From contig NZ_CP017260.1 of the NCBI RefSeq assembly GCF_001735745.1, forward strand, positions 540,001 through 572,000: a stretch of DNA of 32,000 nucleotides. The letters run 5' to 3'. The notes below the pieces were generated by a model. It made no database searches. It was not told where the DNA came from and was given only the letters and a program-made list of their open reading frames with translations. Position numbers and translations under genes: made by a program. Each line of letters opens with the position of its first letter. Position 1 is the stretch's first letter. The stretch comes from Formosa sp. Hel1_33_131 (GTDB lineage: Bacteria; Bacteroidota; Bacteroidia; Flavobacteriales; Flavobacteriaceae). Shown here piece after piece: positions 1 through 18,123 of this stretch.

Positions 1-3000
1 AGGTATTGATCGACACTACCTTGTATTTTATTTTTAGTATATGAATAAAAAGTTTCCTGAATTACTCCTTGATTGTTTTCATTAAAATCTCTATAAACAT
101 TATTTGTCTTAGATAATAATTGGTTAGAAGTATTATAATTAGACACGCTTAATAATCTCCCGATGGCTGATTTATTATCCTTAACGACATATTTTGTAGA
201 AGAAATTTTAGCATTATTGCCATTAACTGAATATGTACCAGAACTTTCGGTAGGAGTTTTATTTATATATAAAAGACCTAAAGAGTATGAACTATTATCC
301 GTTTTGACTATAGGTTTAAATGTTTCAAAATTATAAACCGTTTTAGAGCTGACTGTATTGTCTGATCCAATTTTTTCTGTTGTAACATACCCATAAGTCA
401 CACCAGGAGGGGGCATTTCGGTGACATATTCAATCTCCTTATCAAATTTAGAAGGCGCATAAGATGTTATTCCTGAAGATCTATAACTAGAACTATTTGG
501 ATCACTACTGTAATTTAAATCATTATAGTAATAATTAGTTTTATAAGATATTGTTCCATCTGTAATAGCAATATCCTTCACCCTAAGCCCACCTCCTTTT
601 CTGTTTTTTTTAGAATCTTTAGCAAATATTTTAAACAAAAATGTTACGGCTGTATCATCCCTACAAGTATCTGGCAAATCTGGAAATTGACCCCTTAATA
701 AATTTTGCATTGTATGATCGGAAAAACCAAGCCCCATAGGCCCTGAACTATATAACCAGTTTAGCCCATCATTATAATTATGAGTATGGCTTAATGAAGT
801 TTCAAAAGTCACCTTAGTATCCGAAACATAGACTACATTAACAAATTCATTCTGTATATCTATACTGCCAGACCTATCTTCACAAAAAGGGTCACGATAC
901 TCATGTAATAACGCAGCCCATATATCAACTTTAACGGGTGCACCTACTTGAAAATAATCGTTGAAATAATTTAAATCTTTACTATCCGTTTTATTTTCTA
1001 TATCAAATCTTAGTTTCCCTTCATGATTATAAAAATTAAATTGAATTCCATCATTATATGTTCTGAAATTCGTTGCAGCTTCTTGATAAAAATCATCAGG
1101 CTCATATGTAATTTCAAATTTTGAACCTAATGGAGTTGAAATATATTTTAAACTTGAGCTTTCAGGGTAATCAGCCGTGAACCCCCAAGAATCTTCATTA
1201 TCACTATTGTATATTGAAACATCATTTAAGTAACTGAACTCATAAGGTGGAATTAAACTTTCTTGTCCCCTTCCTAAAAAGTTTACATTACTTAAAGTAA
1301 GCTTCCCTTTTTGAGCTAACAATGAATTTGGAGAATTTCGCATCGATGGATAGGTTTCGTCATAATGCATTTCAATGTGATTAATTTTAAAATCATTTAT
1401 ATTGGAAAAATTATTAGCAATATCATTAGAGTTTAATACATTATTATAAAACTCGCCTTTCCACTCCTTTAAGCTTCCATTATTTAATAACGGATAATTT
1501 GCATGATATACTTCTCTATAAGCAGTATCATAAACTCTTATCTCTTCTTCAAAATACATTTCACCAATTTCTTTTCCGTTACTTTCTGATGTATAGGTTT
1601 TAATATTAGAAGGTACATCTTCATTTTTAAGAACAAAAATTTCTTTTAGCCTCAATGATTTATGTTTATTGATATTAACATATTCTTTATGCCAAATATT
1701 AGAAAAATAGACCCCAGTAGAAATATTCATAGCATGATTATCATATATGCCTTTAACAAAATATGTTGAACCACTATGCCCTAATACTTGTTTGTCTCCA
1801 TAATTATAAACTCGTGGAGAAGTTAAACTCGCTCCAATGTTAATTTCTACTCCATAATTATCATTTCTATCTTCTTTTACAAATAATGCGGTATGTGTTC
1901 TAGTTTTAATCATATCCAAATAATAAATCTCTTTCACCCCCCATCCATAAGATTTTGATTGATCATTCTTGTGATAAGTTAAATCCTTAGTTGGAGTTCT
2001 CCATGCATATCCATCACTCCATTTTCCATAGTCAAAACGAACCCAATACCCATAATCTCCTTGATTTGGGGAAATATTATCATTACTCATTTTAATATAA
2101 TCGGGACCTGTAATTGCAGTGAGTAGCCAGTGGGTCGCATAAGGAGTAAACTGTTGTTCTTCATAAAACTTATTGTCAATATTATCTTCAAGTTCTGTAG
2201 ATCTAGAAAACATTTCTTTTTGATATACTGGTAAAGAATAATGATAAACAAGACCATCTTTATTAGTCACCCTATAAGCTCCAATACCTTCTAAAGGCTT
2301 ATTAGAACGATTCACTTCATTAGCTTCTATAATTATATTTTGATTATTAATAATTTCACCATTAGTGAATACTTCAATAAAAGGACCATTATTAATTCTT
2401 TGGTTTGCAGAATTATAATTACTGTGAGCGGTACCGTTTATAGAGGTAGTATGATTAGTCTGCTCATTGTCGACATCTATATCCGTTATTAAATTTACAG
2501 ATGAAAAAGTAGGCCAAGAGCCAGAACTTAAGCTCATATATGAAGCATTTATGTTTTCAAAATAAAAATTTATATCATTATTTGGATCATCAACCTGTTT
2601 AGAAAAACTGTTATCATAATAACTAAAAGTAGATTGAGTAGCATAGCTAGTATTATTATGAGCACTAGAGCTTACACGATTATATCTATTTTTAAAAGTC
2701 CCATGCTCAAACAAGTACGGAGTAATAGAGCCACTAAGCCCCTGAGAACTCAAAGTGTAGCTGTCATAAGAAGGTCCTGTAAAATTATTCTCTAATAATT
2801 GTTGATTATCCGCAGTTTTATAAATGGACTGATAAGCATCAACTGACGCATTCGTCGGATTCAAAGAATTTAATATCATTTCATCTGTTTGACCTATATA
2901 CAAAATCCCTAGACAATCATAACTAGCTCTATCATACCACGAATATCTTTGTTTTCTTCTAGAATAGCCGAAATTAAATAATTCAATATTAACGTCAACG

Positions 3001-3770
3001 TAAATTACTGTTCCAATGGTTCTTGTGTGAAGATTGGGAGAAAGACTCCCAGATCCAGATATCTGTAAAGACCCTCCAGCAACTTTCAAATAATGATTTC
3101 CGTTAGAGTTTAGAGTAATGCCCGTACCATCCACTTCCAGTTTAAAACTAAAATCATTCCTTTTATCATAATTAATAGACGCATAAGTATTCTTATAAAT
3201 CGTATATGTATATCCAATACCGCCTTCATTATTGGCTCTTATGCTATGTCGACCAATTGAAAGAGTAGCTCCGTAACTAGTGTCATAAGAAGTTTCTCCT
3301 CCAAATGCTTTATTCACTCTATAAGAAGCAAATAATCCAACAGAAAAATTACTGTTTTTCCAACCAATAGATGCACTTATGTCATGTGTAGTGACTGTGC
3401 CACCAGCATCATATAAAATTGTTGTTTTTTTTCTATTATTCCAGTCATCAGGGTACCCATTCACACTTCTATTGATGGCTCCTGGGTTCAAGCTCCACCC
3501 CAAGCCCACCCAAGAGGCTTCTTGATCCATGGCAATCCCTGCGTGGTAGGACAATGATAAAGGATAGCCCACTTCTGGACCTGGCACATTTAATAAGGGC
3601 AATACATAACTTAAATCGCCTGTTGCTAAGTTCACCATATCCGTGGCATCTACGGGTTCAAAACTGGCGGCTTCAGGAGCATTGGGCCCTTGCGCAGTGC
3701 TCATTTGTATAGTCAATACAAGGAGAACAAAACGGAGGCTGAAGGTTTTTATTTGAGGGTGAATTTTCAT
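1..3770 (-). CDS. Large secreted SpvB/TcdB-N-like protein (Rhs/Tc-toxin-family-like), 5' part only, at least 1256 codons, continues past the left edge
   Basis: Absent from the ORF track. I scanned the minus-strand frame by hand (codons on plus positions 3k..3k+2). No in-frame tta/cta/tca triplet occurs between 3 and 3770. The ATG is at 3770-3768, 4 nt after the upstream gene's stop. Translation begins MKIHPQIKTFSLRFVLLVLTIQMSTAQGPNAPEAASFEPVDATDMVNLATGDLSYVLPLLNVPGPEVGYPLSLSYHAGIAMDQEASWVGLGWSLNPGAINRSVNGYPDDW, i.e. a signal peptide plus an SpvB-like motif. Later motifs are YATHWLLTAITGPDY, GKLTLSNVNFLGRGQESLIPPYEFSY, KGGGLRVKDIAITDG and SSGITSYAPS. The family call rests on remembered motif patterns, not a search. 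Confidence 0.8.
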   Translation of the reverse strand, partial: MKIHPQIKTFSLRFVLLVLTIQMSTAQGPNAPEAASFEPVDATDMVNLATGDLSYVLPLLNVPGPEVGYPLSLSYHAGIAMDQEASWVGLGWSLNPGAINRSVNGYPDDWNNRKKTTILYDAGGTVTTHDISASIGWKNSNFSVGLFASYRVNKAFGGETSYDTSYGATLSIGRHSIRANNEGGIGYTYTIYKNTYASINYDKRNDFSFKLEVDGTGITLNSNGNHYLKVAGGSLQISGSGSLSPNLHTRTIGTVIYVDVNIELFNFGYSRRKQRYSWYDRASYDCLGILYIGQTDEMILNSLNPTNASVDAYQSIYKTADNQQLLENNFTGPSYDSYTLSSQGLSGSITPYLFEHGTFKNRYNRVSSSAHNNTSYATQSTFSYYDNSFSKQVDDPNNDINFYFENINASYMSLSSGSWPTFSSVNLITDIDVDNEQTNHTTSINGTAHSNYNSANQRINNGPFIEVFTNGEIINNQNIIIEANEVNRSNKPLEGIGAYRVTNKDGLVYHYSLPVYQKEMFSRSTELEDNIDNKFYEEQQFTPYATHWLLTAITGPDYIKMSNDNISPNQGDYGYWVRFDYGKWSDGYAWRTPTKDLTYHKNDQSKSYGWGVKEIYYLDMIKTRTHTALFVKEDRNDNYGVEINIGASLTSPRVYNYGDKQVLGHSGSTYFVKGIYDNHAMNISTGVYFSNIWHKEYVNINKHKSLRLKEIFVLKNEDVPSNIKTYTSESNGKEIGEMYFEEEIRVYDTAYREVYHANYPLLNNGSLKEWKGEFYNNVLNSNDIANNFSNINDFKINHIEMHYDETYPSMRNSPNSLLAQKGKLTLSNVNFLGRGQESLIPPYEFSYLNDVSIYNSDNEDSWGFTADYPESSSLKYISTPLGSKFEITYEPDDFYQEAATNFRTYNDGIQFNFYNHEGKLRFDIENKTDSKDLNYFNDYFQVGAPVKVDIWAALLHEYRDPFCEDRSGSIDIQNEFVNVVYVSDTKVTFETSLSHTHNYNDGLNWLYSSGPMGLGFSDHTMQNLLRGQFPDLPDTCRDDTAVTFLFKIFAKDSKKNRKGGGLRVKDIAITDGTISYKTNYYYNDLNYSSDPNSSSYRSSGITSYAPSKFDKEIEYVTEMPPPGVTYGYVTTEKIGSDNTVSSKTVYNFETFKPIVKTDNSSYSLGLLYINKTPTESSGTYSVNGNNAKISSTKYVVKDNKSAIGRLLSVSNYNTSNQLLSKTNNVYRDFNENNQGVIQETFYSYTKNKIQGSVDQY

Positions 3771-4434: not shown

Positions 4435-4439
4435 TGCCC

Positions 4440-5066
4440 TTACAATTTTAAGGTCGGTTCATTTTTTAATGTTTGAGTCGCTATTTTAAACTTCACTTCG
4501 CCTGTGTATAAGCCCAAATCCTCAATGGTGAAGTTGAGGTAGTCCTGGTTTAGTTTGTCGGCCTCTCTTGGATAGACAAACATCATGGTGGTGGCACGGC
4601 TCATTCCATACATCCGTGGATAGATGTAATCCGCCAGCTCAATGGTGTCTTTCTGTGCTGTAAACAGGTGTACCTTGTCTTGCATTCCAAACGCCAATTG
4701 GTTGACCATGGCTCCAAATTCATTTTGGTTTTTGGGCGCAACACTCAACAATTCCTGGTTGTTTTTGCTCATGCTTAAATTGAAATAGAGGTACTTATGG
4801 TATTTTTCTCTGGATGTTTGCACTTGAGTTTCTGTTGCCGACGCATCGCCTAATTCTTGTTTGACCAACAAATCGGTAGGACGGTACAAGAGGGTGTATT
4901 CGACGCCATTGATCGTTTTGTGGTGTGTGTAACCGTTTTGTTCGTCTTGTATGTACATGAGTAAATCGTCTTCGTTCTCAAACGTTTTATGACCTTGACA
5001 CCCGATGAGGAGCACTCCTAAAAAACTTAGGGTAAGCATTTTTTGAAAGAGGTGTTTTTTAGCCAT
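4440..5066 (-). CDS. Hypothetical lipoprotein
   Basis: 208-aa ORF. Lipobox LLIGC after a hydrophobic leader (MLTLSFLGVLLIGCQG). Tightly packed in the operon. Confidence 0.7.
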   Translation of the reverse strand: MAKKHLFQKMLTLSFLGVLLIGCQGHKTFENEDDLLMYIQDEQNGYTHHKTINGVEYTLLYRPTDLLVKQELGDASATETQVQTSREKYHKYLYFNLSMSKNNQELLSVAPKNQNEFGAMVNQLAFGMQDKVHLFTAQKDTIELADYIYPRMYGMSRATTMMFVYPREADKLNQDYLNFTIEDLGLYTGEVKFKIATQTLKNEPTLKL

Positions 5067-5078
5067 CCGTTTGATTCC

Positions 5079-5741
5079 TTATTGTTTTGGTTCTATCTCC
5101 TCTTCTTCCATTAGCTCAGCTCCCTGTTCTTCCATCAGTTGTTCAAACACAGTGTCCAGTTCTTTTTTCCCGAACAATGCCAGTAATATGTTCTGATCCG
5201 CGATGATAAAGGGATCTTTACGCAACAAGGATTTTAAATCGTCTAAAGTTGCGATTTTTGGCAGCGGAATTTTTTCCACTTTTGGGGCGACTTCTTCTGC
5301 AATGGTCTCAGCATTCGGCTCCATGAGTTCGTCCTCTTTATCGTTGAAAATTGGTGTTTCGAGGTCTTCAATAGTGATGCCTTGTTGTTCCATCTCCCAC
5401 TTATAAGCCACGGTTGAAACCTCGCTATGGAGTTGGGCTTGTTTCTGTAGGAGTTTTGTTCCCAGTGGGCTGCTGTAAAAAGCATACAAGCCTTTCAACT
5501 CCTTTGGGGTGAATTGTTTTTGATAGACGGCTTCAATACCTGTGTAAAGCGACTTTGCTAAAGCGGTGCTGTCTTTCATTTTTTCAGAAGGCGCTACGGA
5601 TTGGAATTGTTGTAAGAACTCCAACCTAGAGTCCATATCGGTTTGATGTAGGAGCTTCACCAGTTGAGAGGCATCGGTTTCCTGTGCCTGCCCCTGAACT
5701 GTGAGGCATAGAATCATTAAAACAAAAAGTGATTTTATCAT
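5079..5741 (-). CDS. DUF2059-like secreted protein with an acidic C-terminal tail
   Basis: 220-aa ORF. Signal peptide MIKSLFVLMILCLTVQGQAQ. The segment YQKQFTPKELKGLYAFYSSPLGTKLL matches the DUF2059 pattern as I remember it. The C-terminus is E-rich (ELMEEEEIEPKQ). Confidence 0.65.
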   Translation of the reverse strand: MIKSLFVLMILCLTVQGQAQETDASQLVKLLHQTDMDSRLEFLQQFQSVAPSEKMKDSTALAKSLYTGIEAVYQKQFTPKELKGLYAFYSSPLGTKLLQKQAQLHSEVSTVAYKWEMEQQGITIEDLETPIFNDKEDELMEPNAETIAEEVAPKVEKIPLPKIATLDDLKSLLRKDPFIIADQNILLALFGKKELDTVFEQLMEEQGAELMEEEEIEPKQ

Positions 5742-5747
5742 AATTAT

Positions 5748-7136
5748 TTAATTTTTTAGATGGACTTCCAAAGCTTCCAATCGCGCTTCTAAGCTTTTGT
5801 TTTTTTGGTGTTGGGCTTCTAACTCTTTTTGTTGCTGGATAGTGTAAAGCGTGAGTTCTTCAATTTTTTGGAGGAGTTTGATGTTCATTTCTGCAAGATG
5901 AATCCCGTTTTCTTCCATTTCTTTAGCCGATGCTATTTCTGGAAGGTGTTTGTTTTTTGTAATAAACTGCTCGACTGTTTTTAATGTTGGTAACTTATAC
6001 GTGTCTTCAAAAACAAAATCTGCACCACCTGCTGTAGCAGTGACTCTCACTTCTCTTGTAGATATATTGCCCTTGACGGTTAATTTATAGCCAGAATCGG
6101 GGGTGTTAGTGCCAATTCCAATATTGCCAGTAGAAATATGAGCAAATAAATATGCTTTCTCTAAAAACTCATTATTTGTATATTCTAGCTGAGGACCACT
6201 ACTATCACGAATAAAGTAAGTGCCCTCATCTTGAAAAACCACCCCTCCCATATCATTATAAGTTCCTCCTGGGCGTACCCATTTTGCGGTAGCTTGATTC
6301 CATTTTGGAGGCCCATAACTACCGGTTAACCAATCGTCTCGTATCCAACTATTTTCAGAAGAAGCACTCGTTGCACCAATAGAGGTTTTTCTTAACTGTA
6401 CTCCGCTATTTACATGTAACTTGTATTGTGGATTTGTTGTTCCAATTCCGACATTGCCAGTTATAATAACTTTATTTCCTATATCGGTAATGATTTTAGC
6501 CCAAGTTCCAGCTCCAAGCCTATTGGTACTTCTAAAATACATTGTAGGAGATGAACTTGAATTTTTAATTGCGATTTGTCCATTATATTTATACGTAGAA
6601 CTATTTGAAACGTGGTTCATGTTTAAGCCCCAAAACCATCCACCTGATTCTGGACCATTTGTAGCATTATAACTTTCATAAAAACCACTTTGCCATATTG
6701 TATTCCAATCTATTGTTCTGTTAGGATCGTTTAACATTAATTTATTACTCAATATATTTCCATTGACGTGGAGTTTCTCGCTTGGAGTTGTTGTTCCAAT
6801 TCCGACATTTCCGGTTGCTCCTACATGAAATAAAGTTGATCCATTTTGGACTGTAGAATTATATCCCTTTTTCCTAACTTGAAAAGCATTTCTGTTTGTA
6901 TTTCCATACATCCAAACTATTGGAGATATTTGATGAGAACCAGAAAGAATACCAAAACCTCCTTGTGATTGGTTTGTAGTATCTGTACCACGTTGATCAC
7001 CAGCAAACTGATATAGTGTTCCAGTACCATCACCAAAAATCATAGCGCCGTTATTTGTAGAGGATGTGTCGTCTAATTGAGCAAATAGTAAAGAAATATT
7101 AAAAATTAAAAGAAGTGTAAGATTTGTTTTTTTCAT
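5748..7136 (-). CDS. Tail-fibre-like repeat protein with a C-terminal coiled coil
   Basis: 462-aa ORF. Signal peptide MKKTNLTLLLIFNISLLFAQ. Three copies of a G-N-[VI]-G-I-G-T-x-x-P...KL-x-V motif (GNVGIGTTTPSEKLHVNGN, GNVGIGTTNPQYKLHVNSG, GNIGIGTNTPDSGYKLTVKGN). The C-terminus reads ADFVFEDTYKLPTLKTVEQFITKNKHLPEI followed by heptad-like LLQKIEELTLYTIQQQKELEAQ. Confidence 0.75.
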   Translation of the reverse strand: MKKTNLTLLLIFNISLLFAQLDDTSSTNNGAMIFGDGTGTLYQFAGDQRGTDTTNQSQGGFGILSGSHQISPIVWMYGNTNRNAFQVRKKGYNSTVQNGSTLFHVGATGNVGIGTTTPSEKLHVNGNILSNKLMLNDPNRTIDWNTIWQSGFYESYNATNGPESGGWFWGLNMNHVSNSSTYKYNGQIAIKNSSSSPTMYFRSTNRLGAGTWAKIITDIGNKVIITGNVGIGTTNPQYKLHVNSGVQLRKTSIGATSASSENSWIRDDWLTGSYGPPKWNQATAKWVRPGGTYNDMGGVVFQDEGTYFIRDSSGPQLEYTNNEFLEKAYLFAHISTGNIGIGTNTPDSGYKLTVKGNISTREVRVTATAGGADFVFEDTYKLPTLKTVEQFITKNKHLPEIASAKEMEENGIHLAEMNIKLLQKIEELTLYTIQQQKELEAQHQKNKSLEARLEALEVHLKN

Positions 7137-7169
7137 AATAAATGGTTTTTAGTTCTGTTTTATTTAAGT

Positions 7170-7610
7170 TTATTGCCCCTCAAATTCCGCATTTAAACCG
7201 TCTAAAACGGTTTGGGTTAAATCGGAGGCCTCGTTGGCATACATGATATTTCCACTGCCGCTGGCTCCAAAAATAATTTGATGCCCTTGCTGTTTACCAT
7301 AGTCCTTCACATAGTCATTAATATCATTGATGACGGTTTGCGTGGCTTTCTTGTCTTCTTCCTGGATTTGTTTTTGAACGGCTTGTTGGTAGTTATTGAT
7401 CTGTTGTTGTTTATTGCCCAACAATTCCTGCTTGAGTTCCAATTCTTTTTTACTCATTTTGGAACGTTCTTTTTCGTAGATTTTCAATTCATTTTGCCAG
7501 TCCACGAGCAGACTGTCCACATTGGCATTGAGAGTTTTGGCTTTTTCTTCAAATTGCGCACGCACTATTTTGGTGCGTTTGTATCCATCCAATAATTTAT
7601 TGACATCCAC
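7170..7610 (-). CDS. skp: OmpH/Skp-family periplasmic chaperone body (GTG-start ORF lacking its signal peptide, possible pseudogene)
   Basis: 146-aa ORF. VDVNKLLDGYKRTKIVRAQFEEKAKTL plus a K/E/Q-rich coiled coil is typical of OmpH. The first codon is GTG, directly preceded by an in-frame TAA (7613-7611). Confidence 0.65.
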   Translation of the reverse strand: MDVNKLLDGYKRTKIVRAQFEEKAKTLNANVDSLLVDWQNELKIYEKERSKMSKKELELKQELLGNKQQQINNYQQAVQKQIQEEDKKATQTVINDINDYVKDYGKQQGHQIIFGASGSGNIMYANEASDLTQTVLDGLNAEFEGQ

Positions 7611-7613
7611 TTA

Positions 7614-7703
7614 CACTTGGTTGGAAGACGATTGTAAATAAAAAAAGGATCCAATGCTGATTAAAAGTGCAGCAATGGCTACAGGGAAGACGAGTTTATT
7701 CAT
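7614..7703 (-). other. Orphan 30-codon signal-peptide ORF in frame with skp, cut off by TAA
   Basis: The reverse complement reads ATG AAT AAA CTC GTC TTC CCT GTA GCC ATT GCT GCA CTT TTA ATC AGC ATT GGA TCC TTT TTT TAT TTA CAA TCG TCT TCC AAC CAA GTG TAA. This translates as MNKLVFPVAIAALLISIGSFFYLQSSSNQV*. It is in the same frame as 7170-7610. Confidence 0.6.
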
Positions 7704-7897
7704 AATTTTTAATAGATTTATTAGGTAGCATAAAACTATTAAAATACTGTTAAATAAAAAAATGGTTGTCTTGTTTTTTAACGTTTAACTAACATTTTAA
7801 CTCATTCTTATCTGATATAAAAAAACGGACATAGTTCCGACTCGTGTTAAAATTTTATATATATTTATCCCATTGTTTCTCATTAATCCCCAAAAAG

Positions 7898-8293
7898 ATG
7901 AAAAAACTGCCTGCTTATAATCTACAAGAAATCCTCATTGTGCTGGTCATTATTGGGATTTTACTGCTGTTGGCATTGCCCAACTTGATGCCCCTCATTA
8001 GCAAAGCCAAAAGTGTGGAAGCGCAACTCCAATTAAGTCACCTCTTCAATTCACAAACCACCTACCGTTATATGAATTCGAAATATTCAATGGACTTAGA
8101 AACCATTGATTTTGAAGCCCCAAAAACCGTAAAAGAAGAGGGGACTTCCAATTACCGCTATGAAATTATAAGTGCCACCAACCACCAATTCAAAGCCCGT
8201 GCGACTGCCATTACTGATTTTGATGGCGATGGAGTGTTTAATGTGTGGGAAATTGACGAAGATGGCAAACCAAAACAAACCGTAAAAGATTAA
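7898..8293 (+). CDS. Type IV pilin / pseudopilin with a class III signal peptide
   Basis: MKKLPA|YNLQEILIVLVIIGILLLLALPNL aligns with the Bacteroidetes prepilin pattern K-A-F-T-L-I-E-L-L-V-V-I-A-I-I-G-I-L, with Glu at +5. I prefer the ATG at 7898 to the GTG at 7844 used in the ORF track. Confidence 0.8.
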   Translation: MKKLPAYNLQEILIVLVIIGILLLLALPNLMPLISKAKSVEAQLQLSHLFNSQTTYRYMNSKYSMDLETIDFEAPKTVKEEGTSNYRYEIISATNHQFKARATAITDFDGDGVFNVWEIDEDGKPKQTVKD

Positions 8294-8294
8294 A

Positions 8295-8771
8295 ATGGGG
8301 ATCCTAAAACTGATCTTATTGAGTGCCTTTGCGAGCGTCGCCTATCAGGATTTGAAGGACCGCTCTGTGTATTGGTTTTTGTTTCCAGCCATTGGCATTT
8401 GCGTCGGAATTCTCTTTTTTCAGGAAACCTCAGCGGCCTTGTTTTTGGAAGCCATCCTACTCAATTTGGTATTTATTGGTCTGTTGTTGGGCGTGATCTT
8501 TTTGTATGCGACCTATAAACTAAAAATGAAATTATCGGACACAATTGGTTTGGGTGATGGACTGTTGTTTGTCGCGCTGGCATTTGGTTTTGCCCAATTG
8601 ACTTTTATGATTGTCTTTGTGTTTGGATTGGTAGGTTCGTTGCTTTTACATCTAGTTCTAAAAAAATCTAAATCAGAATCCGTGCCCTTAGCGGGCTATA
8701 TGAGTGTGTTTTTTGCATTCGTTTATGCTGCCCATTGGATGGGTTTTTTAACCCCTGCTTATACCTTATAA
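8295..8771 (+). CDS. Short A24-family prepilin peptidase (no methyltransferase domain)
   Basis: 158-aa polytopic membrane protein. Both catalytic Asp contexts are present (AYQDLKDRSVY and GLGDGLLF). It starts 2 nt after the pilin stop. Confidence 0.75.
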   Translation: MGILKLILLSAFASVAYQDLKDRSVYWFLFPAIGICVGILFFQETSAALFLEAILLNLVFIGLLLGVIFLYATYKLKMKLSDTIGLGDGLLFVALAFGFAQLTFMIVFVFGLVGSLLLHLVLKKSKSESVPLAGYMSVFFAFVYAAHWMGFLTPAYTL

Positions 8772-8772
8772 T

Positions 8773-10179
8773 TTGAACGAAGATTTTCACATAGCAACCC
8801 ATTTATCGCAACTTATTTCGAGTGCGCAAGCCTACCATTACCGGATCATTCCTGTGGAGGCGCACAATGGCAGCTTGACGTTTAAATCCGATCAAGTGTC
8901 TGATCATTTGACACAGGAATTACAAATCATCTTAAATAAAGAGATTGAACTCCTTGAAGACTCCACCGAAAACATACAACAGTATTTGAGTGTGAATTTT
9001 AGACCACAGTCTAAAAACCCCCAAGAAGACTTGCGTTACAGCACGGATTTTTTAGAAAAACTACTCTTGACCGCTAAAGATATTGGGAGTAGTGACATTC
9101 ATTTTGAGCCTTATGAATTTAGGTGTCGCGTGCGCTACCGATTGGATGGGAAATTGAAAGAACAGTTTTTTATTTCTTTGGAAGAATACCCAGTGATTAT
9201 TAACAAACTCAAGATAAAAGCAAATTTAGACATCTCCGAAAAACGCCTCCCACAAGATGGGCGGATCACGGTCAAAGCCAATGGCGATGAATTTGACATT
9301 CGGGTGTCCACCCTCCCCACGCTGCATGGCGAAAAAATTGTGCTTCGTATTTTAAGTAAAGATGCCACCCTTGTTAATTTAAGTGAATTGGGATTTACAG
9401 CCTCGGAACTCAAGCTCTATACGGAAACGCTGAAAAAACCCAACGGAATTATTTTAATTTCTGGCCCCACAGGCTCTGGAAAAACGACAACGCTCTATGC
9501 CACCCTGAAGCTTCTGAACGACGAAACAACTAATATTCTTACCATTGAAGATCCGATAGAATATACGCTAGAAGGCATCAACCAAGTGCAGCTTAAAGAA
9601 AGTATTGGATTGGATTTTTCGAGTACTTTAAGAACCTTTTTACGACAGGATCCTGATGTGATTATGGTGGGAGAAATTCGGGATGTAAAAACTGCTAACA
9701 TGGCCATTCGCGCCGCGTTGACAGGGCATTTGGTATTGTCCACCATCCATACCAATTCGGCTTGGGCAACGATTTCGAGATTAATTGACATGGGCATCCC
9801 TTCCTTTTTAATCGCCAGCACCTTAAACGTCAGTGTTGCGCAGCGTTTGGTTCGGAAACTATGTCCCGTTTGCAAAAAAGAAGCTCCCATCTCAAAAGGG
9901 TTATTCCCTGCTGATTTTAAAATACCCAACAACTTAAAAACGCATTTCAAAGCGGAAGGCTGTAACGATTGTTACCACACAGGCTATCAAGGACGACGGG
10001 CGATTTATGAGATTTTGCCGATCCAAAAAGCCTTAACCGAACACATCAAACAAAACACCTTAGAAATTGAAGATTATAGTATAAAAAATAATATTAAAAC
10101 CCTTAAAGACAATGCATTAGATCTAGTAATCAACGGTGTCACTTCTATAGATGAAGTATATACCCTGCTTTCTAGTTAA
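8773..10179 (+). CDS. pilB: PilB/GspE-family type IV filament assembly ATPase
   Basis: Walker A GPTGSGKTTT, Walker B/Asp box DPDVIMVGEIRD, His box GHLVLSTIHTN, and the tetracysteine motif CPVCKK...CNDCYHTGYQGR. Apparent TTG start 2 nt after the peptidase stop. Confidence 0.9.
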   Translation: MNEDFHIATHLSQLISSAQAYHYRIIPVEAHNGSLTFKSDQVSDHLTQELQIILNKEIELLEDSTENIQQYLSVNFRPQSKNPQEDLRYSTDFLEKLLLTAKDIGSSDIHFEPYEFRCRVRYRLDGKLKEQFFISLEEYPVIINKLKIKANLDISEKRLPQDGRITVKANGDEFDIRVSTLPTLHGEKIVLRILSKDATLVNLSELGFTASELKLYTETLKKPNGIILISGPTGSGKTTTLYATLKLLNDETTNILTIEDPIEYTLEGINQVQLKESIGLDFSSTLRTFLRQDPDVIMVGEIRDVKTANMAIRAALTGHLVLSTIHTNSAWATISRLIDMGIPSFLIASTLNVSVAQRLVRKLCPVCKKEAPISKGLFPADFKIPNNLKTHFKAEGCNDCYHTGYQGRRAIYEILPIQKALTEHIKQNTLEIEDYSIKNNIKTLKDNALDLVINGVTSIDEVYTLLSS

Positions 10180-10219
10180 AATATAGCTGCTGTCATTACC
10201 CTAGTTTTATCTCTAAAAA

Positions 10220-12439
10220 ATGAAAAAAATAATCCCCATAGTTGCCTTATTAATTTGCAGTTTCACTCATGCGCAAAATCCGGATCAACGTATTTTGAAC
10301 ATCAAAAATCAGTTGGAATTGTTATCAACGGAAGTGAATGGATTGACCGAAAATGTCAAGACTGAAATTAACGTTGACAACATCACCCTCTCCAATTTTT
10401 TGTTAGCGGTTTCGGATGTTCATAAAGTAAATATTAATGTGTCGCCAGAACTGAATCAAATTAGTATCGCAAATAATTTTACGGACGTATCCGTCGCAGA
10501 TTTACTGGTATTTTTATGTAAAGAATACAACTTGACCATTGATTTTACAGGAAACATCCTTTCAATTAAACAGTATTTTGAAACCCCCGAAACCCCCGAA
10601 AAACGGGTCATTCCCATCACCTACGACCCAAATAATCAGACCATTTCTATCGATGCGAAAGGAGATTCGCTTTACGACGTATTCAAACGCATTATGGATG
10701 AAACTGGGAAAAACTTAGTGTTTTCCCCAGGTCTTGAAGCTAAATTGTTGACGGCCTATATTCAACAAACGCCTTTTGATACTGCGATGGACAATATGGC
10801 TTTTGCAAATAATTTATATGTAGAACAATCAAAAGATGGGTTTTATCTCTTTGAAGATAATTCGCCTAGCGGAACAACTTCTAATTCAAATACTTCCAAT
10901 TCTGGAAATCAACGCCCTGCAAGATCCCGGAATTCTAACTTCTTTTTTAATGTGCTCAACTTAGAAAATCAATTGTTAGAAGTTGATTTTGTCAATACAT
11001 CCATTGCTGATATTATCAATGATATTGGCAATGCCCTCAACATTGATGTGTTTACTGCAACACCTTTAGACCAAGCAGGTATGGCGACCTTTAAAGCCAA
11101 GTCTATTTCTTTTGATGCTCTATTAACCAAGATTTTTGAAGGACAAACGACTCAAACTTCCGAAACTTCAAATCCTAACAATCCTAACAATTCAAATTTT
11201 AATAACCCGAACCAACGGTCATTATCAAATGTAAAAAGTTCCAAAGGCTCCAAGCATTTTACCTACAAAAAAGAAGGCACCATTTATTTCTTTGGAACCG
11301 AAAATCAGTTGAGTGTTCGTGAAGTTGCGATCATTCATTTACAACACCGTTCTGTAGAATTGCTATCAGACCCAAGCGGAGGCGGCAGTCGCAGCAGCAG
11401 TCGAAACGCTAGAAGTCAAGTGCAAAATACCAATACAAACTCAAGAAATAACACGAATTCTAATTCGAATCAAATTGATAATTACAGCAATCGTAACCGA
11501 GAACAACTGAATACCAATTCAAATCAATCCTTTAGTAATTACAGTAGCAAAGCGGAGGCATTGGTGAATATTCTTCCAGATGAAATTAAAAAAGATTTGG
11601 ACATTAAAGTGGATTATGAACTCAACAGTTTTTACGTCAATGGCCCGAGCAGTAACATTGGACGGTTCAAGGATTTTATATCTAAAATTGACAAACCTGT
11701 CCCCGTTATTTTAATTGAAGTTATGATGATTGAGGTTAACACCAACGCTATTGTAGAAACAGGAGTCAGTTGGGGCATTGGAAAAGAGCCAACAACCACT
11801 AGCGGTGGAATCTATCCAGAAACAGACCTTAGCTTAGGCGCACACACTATTAATAAGGTTATTGGTGGCTTTGACGGCTTTGGGTCTTTTAACTTAGGGA
11901 AAGTGATTCCTAATTTTTTCGCAACAATTAAAGCCATGGAATCCAATGGAAATTTAAAGGTGCGCTCCACTCCCAAACTCTCAACGCTAAATGGACACCG
12001 TGCGCGATTTTCAAATGGACAAACCTCCTATTACGCCGTTACCCAACGTAATATTTATGGTAATGACAATCCACAAACGTCTGAAATTACAAACTACCAG
12101 CCTATAGAAGCAGAATTGGGGCTCACCATCAAACCCATTGTTTCGGGAGATGGACAAGTCACCTTGGATATTTTTGTAATTCAGTCCAGTTTTAGAGGTC
12201 GAATTTCAAAAGATGCACCGCCAGATATTAGCTCTCGAGAATTCAGTTCCATTATTCGCGTGAGAGATCAAGACATTGTCGTTTTAGGAGGTCTGGAGGA
12301 GCGACGAACAAATAACTCAGGGTCGGGAGTTCCCTTTTTATCAAGAATCCCCATTATAAAATGGCTGTTTAGCAAACGGGTACGAGAAGGTCGTAAATCT
12401 AAATTAACTGTGTTAATCAAACCCACCATTATTTACTAA
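10220..12439 (+). CDS. Secretin (GspD/PilQ family) with Asn/Ser-rich low-complexity inserts
   Basis: Signal peptide MKKIIPIVALLICSFTHAQ. C-terminal secretin motifs STPKLSTLNGHRARF, VVLGGL and VPFLSRIPIIKWLF. Confidence 0.9.
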   Translation: MKKIIPIVALLICSFTHAQNPDQRILNIKNQLELLSTEVNGLTENVKTEINVDNITLSNFLLAVSDVHKVNINVSPELNQISIANNFTDVSVADLLVFLCKEYNLTIDFTGNILSIKQYFETPETPEKRVIPITYDPNNQTISIDAKGDSLYDVFKRIMDETGKNLVFSPGLEAKLLTAYIQQTPFDTAMDNMAFANNLYVEQSKDGFYLFEDNSPSGTTSNSNTSNSGNQRPARSRNSNFFFNVLNLENQLLEVDFVNTSIADIINDIGNALNIDVFTATPLDQAGMATFKAKSISFDALLTKIFEGQTTQTSETSNPNNPNNSNFNNPNQRSLSNVKSSKGSKHFTYKKEGTIYFFGTENQLSVREVAIIHLQHRSVELLSDPSGGGSRSSSRNARSQVQNTNTNSRNNTNSNSNQIDNYSNRNREQLNTNSNQSFSNYSSKAEALVNILPDEIKKDLDIKVDYELNSFYVNGPSSNIGRFKDFISKIDKPVPVILIEVMMIEVNTNAIVETGVSWGIGKEPTTTSGGIYPETDLSLGAHTINKVIGGFDGFGSFNLGKVIPNFFATIKAMESNGNLKVRSTPKLSTLNGHRARFSNGQTSYYAVTQRNIYGNDNPQTSEITNYQPIEAELGLTIKPIVSGDGQVTLDIFVIQSSFRGRISKDAPPDISSREFSSIIRVRDQDIVVLGGLEERRTNNSGSGVPFLSRIPIIKWLFSKRVREGRKSKLTVLIKPTIIY

Positions 12440-13641
12440 TGCTAAATACCATTTGGACATATCTACAGTATGGAAAGCACTTTTGTGGGGTTGAACTCAG
12501 CACCCATAATCAGACTGAAATTCTAAATGCAACGGTACTGCTTCAATCTAAAAAAGAGCTCAACATCAGTGCTTCTTTTAAAGATAATACCATTGAAAAT
12601 CTATCGAAACATCTACCGAAACACCAACATATTGTTTTGATCGTTAATAATGACAAAGTACTTTCTAAAACAATTGAAAATAAACAAACGGATGCTTTAA
12701 AATTAGTTTATAGCGCATTCCCAAACATCAATCTTGAAGATTTCTATTTTGAAGTCCTCTCTCAAAAGAACTCGCATTTTATAAATATCTGTCGGAAAGA
12801 TTATATAAATACACTTGTAGAAACCTATGCGAAACATCAACTTTTAATACTCAATATATCTTTAGGAAATCATTCTCTGAGCAACCTCATGGAGTTTATC
12901 CAAGAGGAAACGATTTACAGTTCTAATGCTAAAATCACTCTGGAAAACGATGACATCTTACAGATTGAAAAGGGAGCTGTTGTTTCAGAAAATTATGATA
13001 TAAATGGCAGTAGTGTGACCAATCATCAGTTGCTCTCTTTTTCGGGAGCCCTCCAACCTATTTTAAAAAACAGCAACACAGAAACCAACTTTTCAACAGA
13101 AAAAAAACACTTAGAAGACAGTTACAAACAAACGCGGTTTTATAATCTATTTATAAAATTTGGAGGTCTCTTTATTTTAGGGTTATTATTAATTAACTTT
13201 TTCTTTTTTAATCATCATTTCGATAGCGTAAATGAATTGGAGCAAGTCTCAGAAATAAATCAAGTTACCAAAAAACAAATCATTATACTTAATGAAACCG
13301 TCTCCAAAAAACAGAAAATGGTAGATGATTTACTAAAAAGCAATGGATCTAAAAGCTCGTTTTACAGTCATACTATTATCGAAAGCTTACCGGAAACCAT
13401 TCTGCTCTCAGACTACCATTACCAGCCTTTGTTAAGGCGCATTAAAGAAGATGCTCCTATTCAATTAAGTGAAGATCACATTCTCGTTTCAGGCAGCTGT
13501 ATTAAGAGCTCTGATTTTTCAGAATGGATTAATCATTTAGAAAAAATGGGGTGGATTGCTAAAGTTGCTATTGTAGAGTATCGCAATACGAGTTCCAAAA
13601 AATCAGAATTTAAAGTTTCTATCCTTATAAGAAATGACTAA
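12439..13641 (+). CDS. PilM-like cytoplasmic domain fused to a PilN-like bitopic domain (assembly/alignment protein)
   Basis: 400 aa with a single TM (FIKFGGLFILGLLLINFFFF), then a coiled coil and a periplasmic domain. The start overlaps the secretin stop (TAATG). Assignment rests on architecture and position only. Confidence 0.55.
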   Translation: MLNTIWTYLQYGKHFCGVELSTHNQTEILNATVLLQSKKELNISASFKDNTIENLSKHLPKHQHIVLIVNNDKVLSKTIENKQTDALKLVYSAFPNINLEDFYFEVLSQKNSHFINICRKDYINTLVETYAKHQLLILNISLGNHSLSNLMEFIQEETIYSSNAKITLENDDILQIEKGAVVSENYDINGSSVTNHQLLSFSGALQPILKNSNTETNFSTEKKHLEDSYKQTRFYNLFIKFGGLFILGLLLINFFFFNHHFDSVNELEQVSEINQVTKKQIIILNETVSKKQKMVDDLLKSNGSKSSFYSHTIIESLPETILLSDYHYQPLLRRIKEDAPIQLSEDHILVSGSCIKSSDFSEWINHLEKMGWIAKVAIVEYRNTSSKKSEFKVSILIRND

Positions 13642-14146
13642 ACAGCAAAAAAATATAGCCCTCACAGTATCTTTTATTTTGGCATTGATCCTTTGTTACC
13701 AACTCGCCATCAAAAACACCCTTCAACTAAAAGAACAACATACCCATTTAGCAAATGAGGCTGTATCTCTCAAAAGTGCACCCCAGCAATTAGCCTTGTT
13801 AAAACAAAAAAATGTTTATTATGATTCGCTCTTAACAAGGTTCCAATTGGGTGGGTCTTCGATTCAAAACAATCTTCTTAAAGTCATCAATACCTACGCC
13901 AGTAATAACGCATTAAAGGTGGTTGATTTTCTAGAACCCCACGTCTCTACAAATGATAACTTAGTGATCAAAACCTATGATTTCACGCTTGAAGGCACTT
14001 ATAACAACATCAATCAACTTGTCTATTTATTAGAACAAAAAACTAAATTTGGGGAGGTCATCAGTCTTCATTTTGAAAAAAAGAAAAACTATAGAACGGG
14101 ACGGTTTTATTTGCAAGCAAGGATTTTGTTAAAGAGTTTTGGCTGA
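13634..14146 (+). CDS. PilO-like bitopic assembly protein
   Basis: 170 aa with an N-terminal TM (IALTVSFILALILCYQLAI) followed by a coiled coil. 8-nt overlap with the upstream gene (ATGACTAA). Assignment rests on architecture and position only. Confidence 0.5.
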   Translation: MTKQQKNIALTVSFILALILCYQLAIKNTLQLKEQHTHLANEAVSLKSAPQQLALLKQKNVYYDSLLTRFQLGGSSIQNNLLKVINTYASNNALKVVDFLEPHVSTNDNLVIKTYDFTLEGTYNNINQLVYLLEQKTKFGEVISLHFEKKKNYRTGRFYLQARILLKSFG

Positions 14147-14201: not shown

Positions 14202-14286
14202 GCGCACGTGGCGGAATTGGTAGACGCGCTAGCTTGAGGGGCTAGTGGGAATTATTCCCGTGGAAGTTCGAGTCTTCTCGTGCGCA
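14202..14286 (+). tRNA. tRNA-Leu (anticodon GAG), class II with a long variable arm
   Basis: Folded by hand. Acceptor stem GCGCACG/CGTGCGC. Anticodon stem CTAGC/GCTAG with loop TTGAGGG (anticodon GAG). Long variable arm TGGGAATTATTCCCGTG. T arm GGAAG-TTCGAGT-CTTCT. Discriminator A. No encoded CCA. Confidence 0.9.
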
Positions 14287-14364
14287 CTTTTGTATTATTT
14301 AAGTTCAACATTTTGTTTTTAATGTTTTTTTGATTAGTTTAGTTGACCCAAATCTTATTAAAAC

Positions 14365-15264
14365 ATGAACACAATTAAAACCTCCTTTAGCATAAAGGAC
14401 TTAGAAAATCTTTCTGGAATTAAAGCCCATACCATTCGTATATGGGAGAAACGCTACAATCTTCTCGTGCCAGAACGCACAGACACCAACATTAGGACTT
14501 ACAATTTAAGAAGCTTACAAAAGCTGATGAACATTAGTTTCTTAAACAGTAATGGCTATAAAGTCTCTAGAATTGCAGTACTTGATGAGTTTCAAATTGC
14601 AGCAAAAGTAAAAGAGGTTTCGTATTTAGGAAATACGGAACCACATGCCTTTAATGCCTTTAAACTGGCGATGCTAAATTTTGACCAAGCACTTTTTTAC
14701 AACACCTATAACCGTTTGTTAGAGGAAAAAAGCTTTCGTGAAATTTTTTACGAACTCTTCATTCCCATCATACAAGACATCGGTTTTTTATGGCAAACAC
14801 TCACTATCAAGCCTTCCCATGAGCATTTTTTATCTGTTCATATTCGACAAAAAGTGTTGATTCATATTGAGCGCATACAAAGTTCAAACCCGAAACCTGA
14901 TACAAAAACGTTTGTGTTGTTTTTACCACTCAATGAAATTCATGATATTGGACTTTTGTTTATAAACTACGAACTTTTGAGTCGTGGATACCACACAATT
15001 TATCTTGGTGAAAGTGTCCCTATTGAGGACCTTACCCTTCTTAACGCTCTTTATGAAGACATTACATACGTCTCTTATTTCACCATCAAACCAAACCCTG
15101 AAGAGGTTGAAGGTTATTTGAAAAAACTCTATACGGAAGTAATTAAAAACACTACTAATTCGGTGCGGTTACTTGGAACACGTTTTATAGATTCTAAACC
15201 CAAAAAACTTCCAAAACAGATGAAACTCTATAAATCTATCAAGAATTTAGTTAAAGATTTGTAA
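14365..15264 (+). CDS. carH: CarH/LitR-type MerR-family transcriptional regulator with a B12-binding photoreceptor domain
   Basis: N-terminal MerR HTH (FSIKDLENLSGIKAHTIRIWEKRYNLLVPERTDTNIRTY). Wx9EH motif (WQTLTIKPSHEH). ExHxxG cobalamin-ligand motif (EIHDIG). Directly upstream of crtI-crtB-crtZ-cyclase. Confidence 0.8.
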   Translation: MNTIKTSFSIKDLENLSGIKAHTIRIWEKRYNLLVPERTDTNIRTYNLRSLQKLMNISFLNSNGYKVSRIAVLDEFQIAAKVKEVSYLGNTEPHAFNAFKLAMLNFDQALFYNTYNRLLEEKSFREIFYELFIPIIQDIGFLWQTLTIKPSHEHFLSVHIRQKVLIHIERIQSSNPKPDTKTFVLFLPLNEIHDIGLLFINYELLSRGYHTIYLGESVPIEDLTLLNALYEDITYVSYFTIKPNPEEVEGYLKKLYTEVIKNTTNSVRLLGTRFIDSKPKKLPKQMKLYKSIKNLVKDL

Positions 15265-15319
15265 AAAATCGTTAGACACATACTAACTGTATTGGCTTTT
15301 GCTTATTTTTATACGCTAA

Positions 15320-16789
15320 ATGAAAAAAACAATACAAATTATTGGTTCTGGGTTTTCATCCTTGTCTGCAGCCTGCTATTTAGCACAAGCGGGACATACG
15401 GTCTCCGTCTATGAAAAAAACAGTACTGTGGGCGGTCGTGCACGCCAACTAAAAAAAGATGGATTCACTTTTGATATCGGTCCTTCCTGGTATTGGATGC
15501 CGGATGTATTTGATCGCTTTTTTGGCGATTTTGGTAAAAAAACGTCTGACTACTACCACATTGACAAACTAGACCCCGCTTATAAAATATTTTTCGACGA
15601 TGAGATTATCACCATCGGAGATTCTATGGATAAAATTTGTGCAGAATTTGAACGCATCGAAAAAGGAAGTGGCCTCAAGCTTAAAAAATTCATAGACAAA
15701 GCACAAAGCAATTACGGAATTGCTGTCAATAAAATCTTGTACAATGCGCCAGGAGTCTCTCCTTTAGAATTAGTTACAAAAGATACTGTGAAGCGCTTAG
15801 ATCAGTTTTTCAAAACCATCAGTCACGAAGTTCGAAAAAACTTTAGCAATCCAAAGTTAATTTCAACACTTGAATTTCCCTCCCTATTTTTAGGAGCCAA
15901 ACCGACTAAAACCCCTTCGTTTTTTAGTTTTATGAATTATGCCGATTTTGGTTTAGGGACTTGGCATCCAAGAGGTGGCATGTATGAAATCATCAAGGCA
16001 ATGGAAGCCTTAGCTGTAGAGTTGGGAGTGCAAATTCACACCAACCACCCTGTAGATAAAATTGTGGTGGACAAGACTACTGTGAGCGGAATTGTGACCA
16101 AAGATGTGTTTATAGAATCTGACATTGTACTCAGTGGTGCAGACTATCACCATTCCGAAACTTTGCTAGACGCAGCATACCGACAACATTCTGAAACGTA
16201 TTGGGACAAAAAAGTATTTGCGCCTTCCTCCTTGCTATTTTATATTGGATTGGATAAAAAACTTAAAAACGCAGAACATCACAATTTGTTTTTTGATGCT
16301 GATTTTGAGAAGCATGCCGAAGAAATATACGACGATCCAAAATGGCCTAGCCATCCGTTGTTCTATGCCAATGTTCCATCAAAAACAGATCCTTCAATGG
16401 CACCAAAAGGTTGTGAAGCCTTGTTTATTTTGATGCCAATCGCTCCAAATATTGAGGACACTCCTGAGCTCAGAAGCCACTATCTTGAAAAGATAATTGA
16501 AAGATTTGAAGAAAAAACAAAGCAATCGATTCAAAATAATATTATATTTAGAGAATCCTTTTGTGTTGACGACTTTAAATCTGAATACAATTCATACAAA
16601 GGAAACGCCTACGGAATGGCAATGACACTATTACAAACGGCCTTTTTAAGACCGAAATTAAAAAGTAACAAAGTCAAGAATTTATATTTTACAGGACAAT
16701 TGACCGTCCCTGGACCAGGAGTGCCCCCTTCTCTAATCTCCGGAAAACTGACCTCAGAACTTATACAAAAGATGCTAGACAAATGTTAA
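15320..16789 (+). CDS. crtI: Phytoene desaturase
   Basis: 489 aa. N-terminal FAD fold IQIIGSGFSSLSAACYLAQAGHTVSVYEKNSTVGGRA. Typical CrtI C-terminus (LYFTGQLTVPGPGVPPSLISG). Carotenoid cluster context. Confidence 0.9.
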   Translation: MKKTIQIIGSGFSSLSAACYLAQAGHTVSVYEKNSTVGGRARQLKKDGFTFDIGPSWYWMPDVFDRFFGDFGKKTSDYYHIDKLDPAYKIFFDDEIITIGDSMDKICAEFERIEKGSGLKLKKFIDKAQSNYGIAVNKILYNAPGVSPLELVTKDTVKRLDQFFKTISHEVRKNFSNPKLISTLEFPSLFLGAKPTKTPSFFSFMNYADFGLGTWHPRGGMYEIIKAMEALAVELGVQIHTNHPVDKIVVDKTTVSGIVTKDVFIESDIVLSGADYHHSETLLDAAYRQHSETYWDKKVFAPSSLLFYIGLDKKLKNAEHHNLFFDADFEKHAEEIYDDPKWPSHPLFYANVPSKTDPSMAPKGCEALFILMPIAPNIEDTPELRSHYLEKIIERFEEKTKQSIQNNIIFRESFCVDDFKSEYNSYKGNAYGMAMTLLQTAFLRPKLKSNKVKNLYFTGQLTVPGPGVPPSLISGKLTSELIQKMLDKC

Positions 16790-16822
16790 GCAGCTTAGTT
16801 AAAAAATTTAAAATTTAAGTTT

Positions 16823-17662
16823 ATGAAGTCCATATTTGATGCTGTATCACAAGACTGTAGTCGGATTATTACTCAGACCTATAGCACCTCGTTTTCGATG
16901 GCCACAAAAATGCTGTCGAACTCGATTCGTCAGGATATTTATAATATCTACGGCTTTGTACGCTTGGCGGATGAAATTGTAGATTCATTTCACGACTATG
17001 ACAAACAAGCGTTATTCATTCAATTTGAAGCAGATTTAGAAGCGGCACTTATTAATAAAATCAGCCTCAACCCTATTTTGAATTCCTTTCAACACACCTA
17101 TCATACCTACGCTATTGATAAAGACATGGTAGATGCTTTTATGAATTCAATGCGTCAGGATTTGCATAAGACGGTCTATCACACGGATGAAGAATATAAA
17201 AATTACATTTATGGCTCTGCCGATGTGGTTGGTCTGATGTGTTTAAAAGTCTTTGTAAAAGGGGATGATAAACGCTATGAGTCGCTCAAGAAAACAGCTA
17301 TGGCGTTGGGCTCTGCATTTCAAAAAGTAAATTTCTTGAGAGATTTAAAAGCAGATCACGATGAATTGAATCGAACATACTTTCCTAACACGGATTTAAA
17401 TAATTTAGATGAAATCTCTAAAAAGGCAATTATTGACGATATTGAAAATGATTTCGCTGAAGGATTGAAAGGGATTAAACAACTGCCTTTAGAAGCTAAG
17501 TTTGGTGTTTTTATGGCGTACCGTTATTACAATCAACTGCTTAAAAAACTAAAAACAACCCCTGCACTCGAAATCAAAAGTACCCGAATTCGAGTCCCTG
17601 ATTATAAAAAAGTAGAACTGCTCACCCGTAGTTATGTCAAATATCAACTCAATCTATTATAG
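16823..17662 (+). CDS. crtB: Phytoene synthase
   Basis: 279 aa. Squalene/phytoene synthase motifs (YGFVRLADEIVD, YIYGSADVVGLM, AFQKVNFLRDLKAD). Confidence 0.9.
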   Translation: MKSIFDAVSQDCSRIITQTYSTSFSMATKMLSNSIRQDIYNIYGFVRLADEIVDSFHDYDKQALFIQFEADLEAALINKISLNPILNSFQHTYHTYAIDKDMVDAFMNSMRQDLHKTVYHTDEEYKNYIYGSADVVGLMCLKVFVKGDDKRYESLKKTAMALGSAFQKVNFLRDLKADHDELNRTYFPNTDLNNLDEISKKAIIDDIENDFAEGLKGIKQLPLEAKFGVFMAYRYYNQLLKKLKTTPALEIKSTRIRVPDYKKVELLTRSYVKYQLNLL

Positions 17663-17670
17663 CCTTTATT

Positions 17671-18120: not shown

Positions 18121-18123
18121 CGG

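Follow-up and report, generated by a model that had tools for sequence, protein, structure and literature searches.

Within a 32-kb stretch of the 2,735,158-bp chromosome of Formosa sp. Hel1_33_131 (hereafter the window), six co-directional open reading frames (ORFs) on the + strand fill positions 7898-14146 and encode proteins like those found in type II secretion systems (T2SSs) and in type IV pili. Their products are identical to GenBank entries AOR27544.1-AOR27549.1 from the same organism, which are labeled, in order, GspG, hypothetical, GspE, GspD, hypothetical and hypothetical (Table 1). An earlier note on this DNA had placed the six ORFs at these coordinates, and our reading of the sequence agrees. 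It had also described them as tightly coupled with gaps of 1-2 nt, which stands in part: the pilin and peptidase genes are separated by 1 nt, as are the peptidase and ATPase genes, the secretin gene and the gene for a 400-aa protein overlap in TAATG (12437-12441), and the latter overlaps the gene for a 170-aa protein by ATGACTAA (13634-13641), but the ATPase and secretin genes lie 40 nt apart (10180-10219).

Through the family of the 400-aa protein, which we call GspL-like, we gathered 80 related loci from species-representative genomes, to which two homologues added three more (83 loci), and grouped all flanking ORFs of these loci into families (f-numbers below). The GspL-like family counts 2,437 representatives at 50% identity and extends, at 29-30% identity, to a Flavobacterium sp. 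(L078) and to an Arcicella metagenome-assembled genome (MAG; L079). The gene order, in T2SS letters G (pilin), O (short A24 peptidase), E (ATPase) and D (secretin) followed by the L/M-like genes, is the same in 77 of 84 sources, and compared with the close relative L004 all six genes have ratios of nonsynonymous to synonymous substitution (dN/dS) of 0.06-0.19, indicating purifying selection. The conserved order and the low dN/dS show that these ORFs do not stand together by chance.

The first gene encodes a small pilin with Ala at position -1 and Glu at position +5 of its class III signal, and this N-terminal motif is conserved in 73 of 78 family members. Across the pilin and the pilin-like families f14, f15 and f17 of 17 loci (e.g. 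L090, 3528-5600), the residue at -1 of the prepilin cleavage site is mostly Ala and sometimes Gly or Ser. Matches of the pilin to GspG, PilA and ComP models are weak; the best NCBIfam match is a PilA model, and the NCBIfam GspG model gives 35.8 bits, under its equivalog cut-off of 88.85. The 158-aa protein encoded next has no Pfam match, and a profile of its family matched nothing among PDB sequences. Nevertheless, 19 of 34 homologues match Pfam Peptidase_A24 (best E 3.7e-07), and D19, G85-x-G87-D88 and P131-L-A-G-Y are invariant across 34 sequences of the family. An AlphaFold2 (AF2) model with a predicted local distance difference test (pLDDT) score of 91.2 is all-helical, and its top Foldseek match is the GxGD protease FlaK (3s0x; TM-score 0.52), which at E 4.2 is not significant. 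The protein thus shows the A24 features, namely two Asp residues, the second of them within GxGD, in a polytopic membrane protein predicted to be all-helical, and from its sequence family we assign it as a putative short prepilin peptidase lacking the methyltransferase domain.

The ATPase and the secretin are readily recognized by Pfam, and each gets similar scores from pilus and T2SS models. The ATPase scores 497.6 bits against the NCBIfam PilB model and 483.6 bits against GspE, both under the equivalog cut-offs (630.25 for GspE), while the secretin scores 151.7 bits against GspD (cut-off 351.35) and 134.1 bits against PilQ, again both under cut-off. A Pfam search of the secretin found no AMIN domain. 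Between its N-terminal domains and its core, the secretin contains long low-complexity linkers rich in Asn, Ser and Thr at about residues 215-235, 310-340 and 385-440.

Profiles of the 400-aa and 170-aa families gave no meaningful match among PDB sequences, and it is the predicted structure that identifies the former. Its AF2 model (pLDDT 81.7) consists of an actin-like alpha/beta cytoplasmic domain, one long transmembrane/coiled-coil helix and a ferredoxin-like periplasmic domain, which is the domain layout of GspL in canonical T2SSs. The top Foldseek matches are cytoplasmic domains of GspL/EpsL (the GspE-GspL complex 4pht, E 1.1e-08; EpsL 1yf5), followed by PilM (5eoy) and FtsA, and the C-terminal domain resembles the periplasmic domains of XcpY and PulL (TMt 0.70-0.74). 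The model thus describes a GspL-type fusion of PilM and PilN rather than a polytopic platform. A divergent platform hidden in either the 400-aa or the 158-aa protein was considered and ruled out by predicted fold and topology. For the 170-aa protein, whose own PilO score falls just short of the Pfam cut-off, 10 of 25 homologues match Pfam PilO (best E 4.8e-06). Taken together, the Pfam matches of ATPase and secretin, the class III signal, the A24 homologues, the GspL fold and the PilO homologues bear out, in essentials, the gene-by-gene assignments of the earlier note.

That note had gone on to propose a minimal machine devoid of a PilC/GspF platform, PilP and minor pilins, or else one with its platform encoded elsewhere. 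The absence itself is real: a T2SSF search found no PilC/GspF gene in the 32-kb window, and 66 of the 83 related loci had none within the flanks that were fetched. In 17 of the 83, a second operon of five genes in constant order lies within 10 kb of the six-gene cluster and ends in a platform gene (Table 1). The two operons may be divergent, convergent or collinear, and in Thalassobellus citreus (L011) all 11 genes form one collinear string ending F-G-O-E-D-L-M. Besides the platform, the second operon encodes a one-transmembrane protein (f16), whose family had no match in Pfam, NCBIfam or PDB profiles, and three pilin-like proteins. Class III signals are present on all three of the additional pilin-like families f14, f15 and f17, for f14 and f17 by motif only, and an f14 profile found nothing meaningful among PDB sequences. 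Every genome checked that lacks an adjacent T2SSF gene holds a GspF-family copy elsewhere, as seen on the same contig or in the same genome for Olleya sp. Bg11-27, Algibacter marinivivus and Winogradskyella luteola (P0420, P0371 and P0332).

Table 1. Genes and other features of the Formosa sp. Hel1_33_131 window, and of the second operon as found in related loci.
Feature	Position in window	Strand	Size	Basis and remarks
Major (pseudo)pilin (G)	7898..8293	+	131 aa	AOR27544.1; class III signal MKKLPA/YNLQE (slash, cleavage site)
Short GxGD aspartyl prepilin peptidase, A24-like, putative (O)	8295..8771	+	158 aa	No methyltransferase domain
PilB/GspE-family assembly ATPase (E)	8773..10179	+	468 aa	TTG start; Pfam T2SSE E 4.3e-131
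Outer-membrane secretin (D)	10220..12439	+	739 aa	Signal peptide; Pfam Secretin E 1.7e-39
GspL-like assembly protein, PilM-PilN fused architecture (L)	12439..13641	+	400 aa	AF2 model and Foldseek
PilO/GspM-like bitopic assembly protein (M)	13634..14146	+	170 aa	Pfam PilO 21.3 bits (cut-off 22)
Second operon, gene 1: one-transmembrane protein			~155 aa	Family f16
Second operon, gene 2: protein with pilin-like N-terminus			~422-425 aa	Family f14; no Glu5
Second operon, gene 3: pilin-like protein			~110 aa	
Second operon, gene 4: pilin-like protein			~154 aa	Family f15; Pfam N_methyl match
Second operon, gene 5: platform protein (F)			377 aa	Pfam T2SSF E 4.9e-44, both repeats
OmpH/Skp-like periplasmic chaperone gene	7170..7703	-		Pfam OmpH E 3.3e-21; divergent from pilin gene, conserved neighbor
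Giant Sec-signal protein	1..3770	-	N-terminal 1256 of 1694 aa	Signal peptide; no detectable family
NVGIGTT-repeat protein	5748-7136	-	462 aa	No family match
Three small conserved proteins	3775-5741		219 aa; 208 aa; DUF2059	
tRNA-Leu(GAG) gene	14202-14287	+		
Carotenoid (zeaxanthin-type) cluster	14365-18825	+		

Formosa sp. Hel1_33_131 has its own copy of the platform. The GspF ortholog AOR27523.1/WP_069675907.1 (cluster P0479) is 377 aa long, precedes the pilin AOR27544.1 by 21 protein accessions, and reaches 229 bits with the NCBIfam GspF model (equivalog cut-off 424) as well as with the HofC model. In contigs that carry an identical GspF, including L090, the whole second operon lies intact upstream of GspF; genes for a lipoprotein and for an Ig-like lipoprotein come before it, and shikimate kinase is encoded downstream. 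Accession order, the number and sizes of the genes, and contigs L084 and L093 together give a very rough estimate of 25-30 kb for the distance by which the Formosa gene lies upstream of the pilin gene, beyond the window, and the same two contigs suggest that about ten housekeeping genes, an RHS protein and the giant gene fill the interval. Across relatives, the distance matrix of GspF correlates with those of L, E and D (r = 0.86-0.90, Mantel p <= 0.0005), as closely as the latter do among themselves (0.81-0.92), although vertical inheritance alone could produce this correlation.

These data bear directly on the idea of a machine that needs neither a PilC/GspF platform nor minor pilins. It accounts for the lack of T2SSF in the window and in the flanks of most related loci, but the Formosa genome encodes an orthologous GspF together with a minor-pilin operon, 17 relatives have the two operons side by side or fused, the operons co-vary, and each genome checked without an adjacent copy has one elsewhere. 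We consider such a reduced machine close to inconceivable. The same genome encodes the platform at another site, as the earlier note had allowed, and the finding of GspF and minor pilins that co-vary with the cluster is what that note had taken as the mark of an ordinary split system. No platform-less type IV filament machine is present here, and the universality of the PilC/GspF platform is therefore unchallenged.

The Formosa locus belongs to the already described "so-called T2SS of Bacteroidetes" and is not a new stripped-down variant. Wang et al. (2017; PMC5553014) reported putative T2SSs encoded by chu_3191-3202 of Cytophaga hutchinsonii and Fjoh_0611-0622 of Flavobacterium johnsoniae, comprising minor pilins, F, G, a short A24 peptidase O, E, D and divergent proteins like L, M and C. 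Going by that published description, the Formosa component set and local gene order match chu_3198-3191 and Fjoh_0615-0622; here too the L/M-like proteins and minor pilins lack Pfam matches, and L011 has exactly the single-locus layout. Formosa differs in that the half carrying F and the minor pilins lies about 20 genes from the G-O-E-D-L-M half, with housekeeping genes between them. A split arrangement was described in F. psychrophilum CC-ST10 by Duchaud et al. (2018; PMC5808330), where T2S loci of six genes (FPSM_02418-02423) and five genes (FPSM_02435-02439) flank an OmpH gene and large exported ABC-toxin-like proteins. The window resembles it in having OmpH/Skp beside the pilin gene and in the order giant, small proteins, OmpH, G-O-E-D-L-M. 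It differs in that the two F. psychrophilum loci, some 11 genes apart, sit on a strain-specific island of about 35 kb, whereas the Formosa interval also holds core genes and the Formosa OmpH gene has a stop codon. Marine Flavobacteriaceae commonly carry the Bacteroidetes T2SS-like system, and its usual division between two operons explains why locus-based scans label it incomplete or "generic".

We conclude, with a probability of about 65%, that an 11-gene filament machine of the Bacteroidetes T2SS type is divided between the six genes, its G-O-E-D-L-M half, and the operon of one-transmembrane protein, three pilin-like proteins and GspF, and that this machine serves secretion by an endopilus. 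The six-gene cluster is real, its function could be secretion or a pilus, and secretion through a periplasmic endopilus rather than a surface pilus is the most likely. We favor the endopilus because the tether is of the GspL type, the pilin is small and the 83 loci showed no PilT-like ATPase, and also because of the phenotypes in Cytophaga, where mutants in D, F and G lost cellulose-bound outer-membrane proteins and adhesion and kept motility (PMC5553014). Compared with the proteobacterial T2SS (Gsp/Eps/Xcp/Pul), the machine shares E, F, D, G and O, a GspL-type ATPase tether as in 4pht, a GspM/PilO-like partner, pilin-like minor subunits and a locus without a retraction ATPase. It differs in its peptidase, which lacks the methyltransferase domain, in cleavage mostly after Ala, in having three pilin-like minor genes instead of four, in the lack of a recognizable GspC HR or PDZ domain, and in a lineage that published phylogeny places with type IVa pili (PMC6668835).

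In that phylogeny, Denise et al. (2019; PMC6668835) found that the "so-called T2SS of Bacteroidetes" groups with type IVa pili in every marker, apart from true T2SSs, and suggested that it may be an independently arisen secretion system. The same placement bears on an unlikely alternative, in which the complete set of 11 genes would assemble an extracellular, type IVa-like pilus used in adhesion or surface colonization. The slightly higher score of the ATPase for PilB than for GspE, the PilA model as best NCBIfam match of the pilin, and the weaker adhesion of the C. hutchinsonii mutants to cellulose (PMC5553014) also speak for a pilus, and the machine shares with type IVa pili a PilB-like ATPase, a PilC-like platform, a secretin and PilO-like and PilM/PilN-like folds. 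A type IVa system would, however, be expected to have separate PilM and PilN, PilT, and PilQ with AMIN. Here PilM and PilN are predicted to be fused, with GspL as the best structural match of the fusion; a search of the 83 loci found no second T2SSE-family or PilT-like ATPase, in agreement with the absence of PilT reported in the earlier note, and no PilU either; the secretin has no Pfam AMIN domain; the pilin is small (131 aa); and motility of the C. hutchinsonii mutants was unaffected (PMC5553014).

Several points weigh against a split T2SS-type machine that secretes by an endopilus. The scores for GspD, E, F and G all fall under the NCBIfam equivalog cut-offs, so that by these models the machine is not a canonical T2SS. 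The minor pilin-like genes found number three, not four, and the GspC/PilP-like and GspK-like labels are guesses, because profile searches of PDB sequences were empty; these two assignments have no support from sequence or structure. The Cytophaga and F. johnsoniae proteins were compared by description, not by sequence, and the chromosomal position of GspF in Formosa was deduced from accession order and metagenome contigs. The extracellular protein profile of C. hutchinsonii was barely altered in the mutants (PMC5553014), and no secreted substrate has been identified for the Bacteroidetes-type system. Finally, the placement of the Bacteroidetes system with type IVa pili (PMC6668835) gives a surface pilus some probability.

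Based on established knowledge of T2SSs and type IV pili, endopilus secretion by the 11-gene machine would proceed as follows. The 158-aa GxGD peptidase would trim the short leader of the pilin and minor pilins, mostly after Ala; no N-methylation is expected, because the peptidase lacks the methyltransferase domain. The cytoplasmic domain of the GspL-like protein would hold the hexameric ATPase at the membrane, where the ATPase would drive the GspF platform; with the minor pilins as primer, the platform would polymerize the 131-aa pilin into a short filament in the periplasm. The periplasmic domains of the GspL-like and GspM-like proteins, and probably also the one-transmembrane protein, may link the inner-membrane platform to the secretin. 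Growth of the filament would then push out cargo, exported by Sec and already folded, either through the secretin or to the surface of the cell.

A filament of this kind could instead take up DNA. As a competence pseudopilus the machine would fit the weak match of the pilin to ComP_DUS (26.1 bits, below the cut-off of 27.3), a similarly weak match to ComGC, and the combination of a secretin and a PilB-type ATPase without PilT, which resembles some competence systems. Yet ComEC, DprA, ComF and ComEA families, the first three of which the earlier note had proposed looking for, are not among the recurrent neighbors of the 83 loci. In the naturally competent flavobacterium Riemerella anatipestifer, a transposon screen recovered ComEC, DprA, ComF and RecA, as well as a predicted outer-membrane protein with a carboxypeptidase regulatory domain and its downstream partner (PMC8459023); it yielded no pilin, ATPase or secretin gene, although Riemerella was not checked for carrying the cluster. 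The lack of recurrent competence neighbors and of filament genes in the Riemerella screen makes DNA uptake quite improbable.

For endopilus secretion, the genes divergent from the pilin gene offer candidate cargo. The ORF at 1-3770, which matched nothing in Pfam, NCBIfam or PDB sequences, is the N-terminal part of a giant protein. Contig L093 shows this protein at full length and, after it, an RHS/YD protein carrying an Rhs_assc_core domain (continuation at 4358-13688); in Formosa this continuation lies outside the window. We use "TcB-like" for the giant as a label only, taken from its position before the RHS-core protein and a remark in PMC5808330. Of 77 related loci, 46 have giants of families f8, f22 or f25 within the flanks that were fetched; these are mostly divergent from the pilin gene and are paired with DUF6443/RHS proteins. 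The giant-linked layout reaches the Flavobacterium sp. and the Arcicella MAG. In the parts seen, the giant and RHS proteins have Sec signals and not the C-terminal domains of type IX secretion system (T9SS) substrates. Going by conserved linkage only, the giant and RHS proteins are plausible candidate cargo, and their recurrent linkage with OmpH would give a system lacking known substrates a candidate that can be tested. A more speculative extension, which we regard as doubtful, is that the machine arose from type IVa pili independently of the proteobacterial T2SS and that its dedicated cargo is the giant/RHS pair, a polymorphic toxin resembling Tc-toxin BC components and handled in the periplasm by OmpH/Skp.

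The OmpH gene of Formosa contains an in-frame TAA at codon 31 (7611-7613), which separates the signal peptide from the chaperone domain. The codon specifies Tyr in relatives, including L004, which is 88-97% identical, and the stop recurs in two independent metagenome contigs (L093 and L094). Together with the absence in Formosa of a response regulator found upstream of the pilin gene in 45 relatives, this lineage-specific stop could mean that the system is decaying and non-functional in a streamlined genome of 2.7 Mb. The six genes are nevertheless intact, with the dN/dS values given above, and GspF and the full second operon are intact in the contigs with an identical GspF; because the genes are intact and under purifying selection, we judge decay to be highly improbable.

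In these 45 loci the response regulator immediately precedes the pilin gene, at a median distance of 51 bp (e.g. L001, 4762-5427; L003, 4719-5393), and it is absent from Formosa sp. Hel1_33_131 and from its close relative L004. It has a receiver domain, and a LuxR-type output is assumed from its size. A scan for sigma-70 promoters and terminators performed no better than on shuffled sequences.

Between the OmpH gene and the giant lie further conserved genes. The 462-aa protein, with repeated NVGIGTT motifs and a tail-fiber-like look, belongs to a family that in relatives such as L070 has up to four tandem copies beside the cluster. Three small conserved proteins separate it from the giant, and of these the 219-aa ORF has a TTG start and returned no record in a look-up.

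Directly downstream of the last cluster gene is a tRNA-Leu(GAG) gene. Five related loci have an integrase gene some 300 bp downstream of the cluster, and the families RteC and RadC also recur in the vicinity; the tRNA and integrase flank suggests an insertion site for mobile elements. In Formosa, as in L004, the cluster is followed by carotenoid genes encoding a CarH-like MerR/B12-binding regulator, phytoene desaturase, phytoene synthase, a CrtZ-like protein of the fatty-acid-hydroxylase family and lycopene cyclase.

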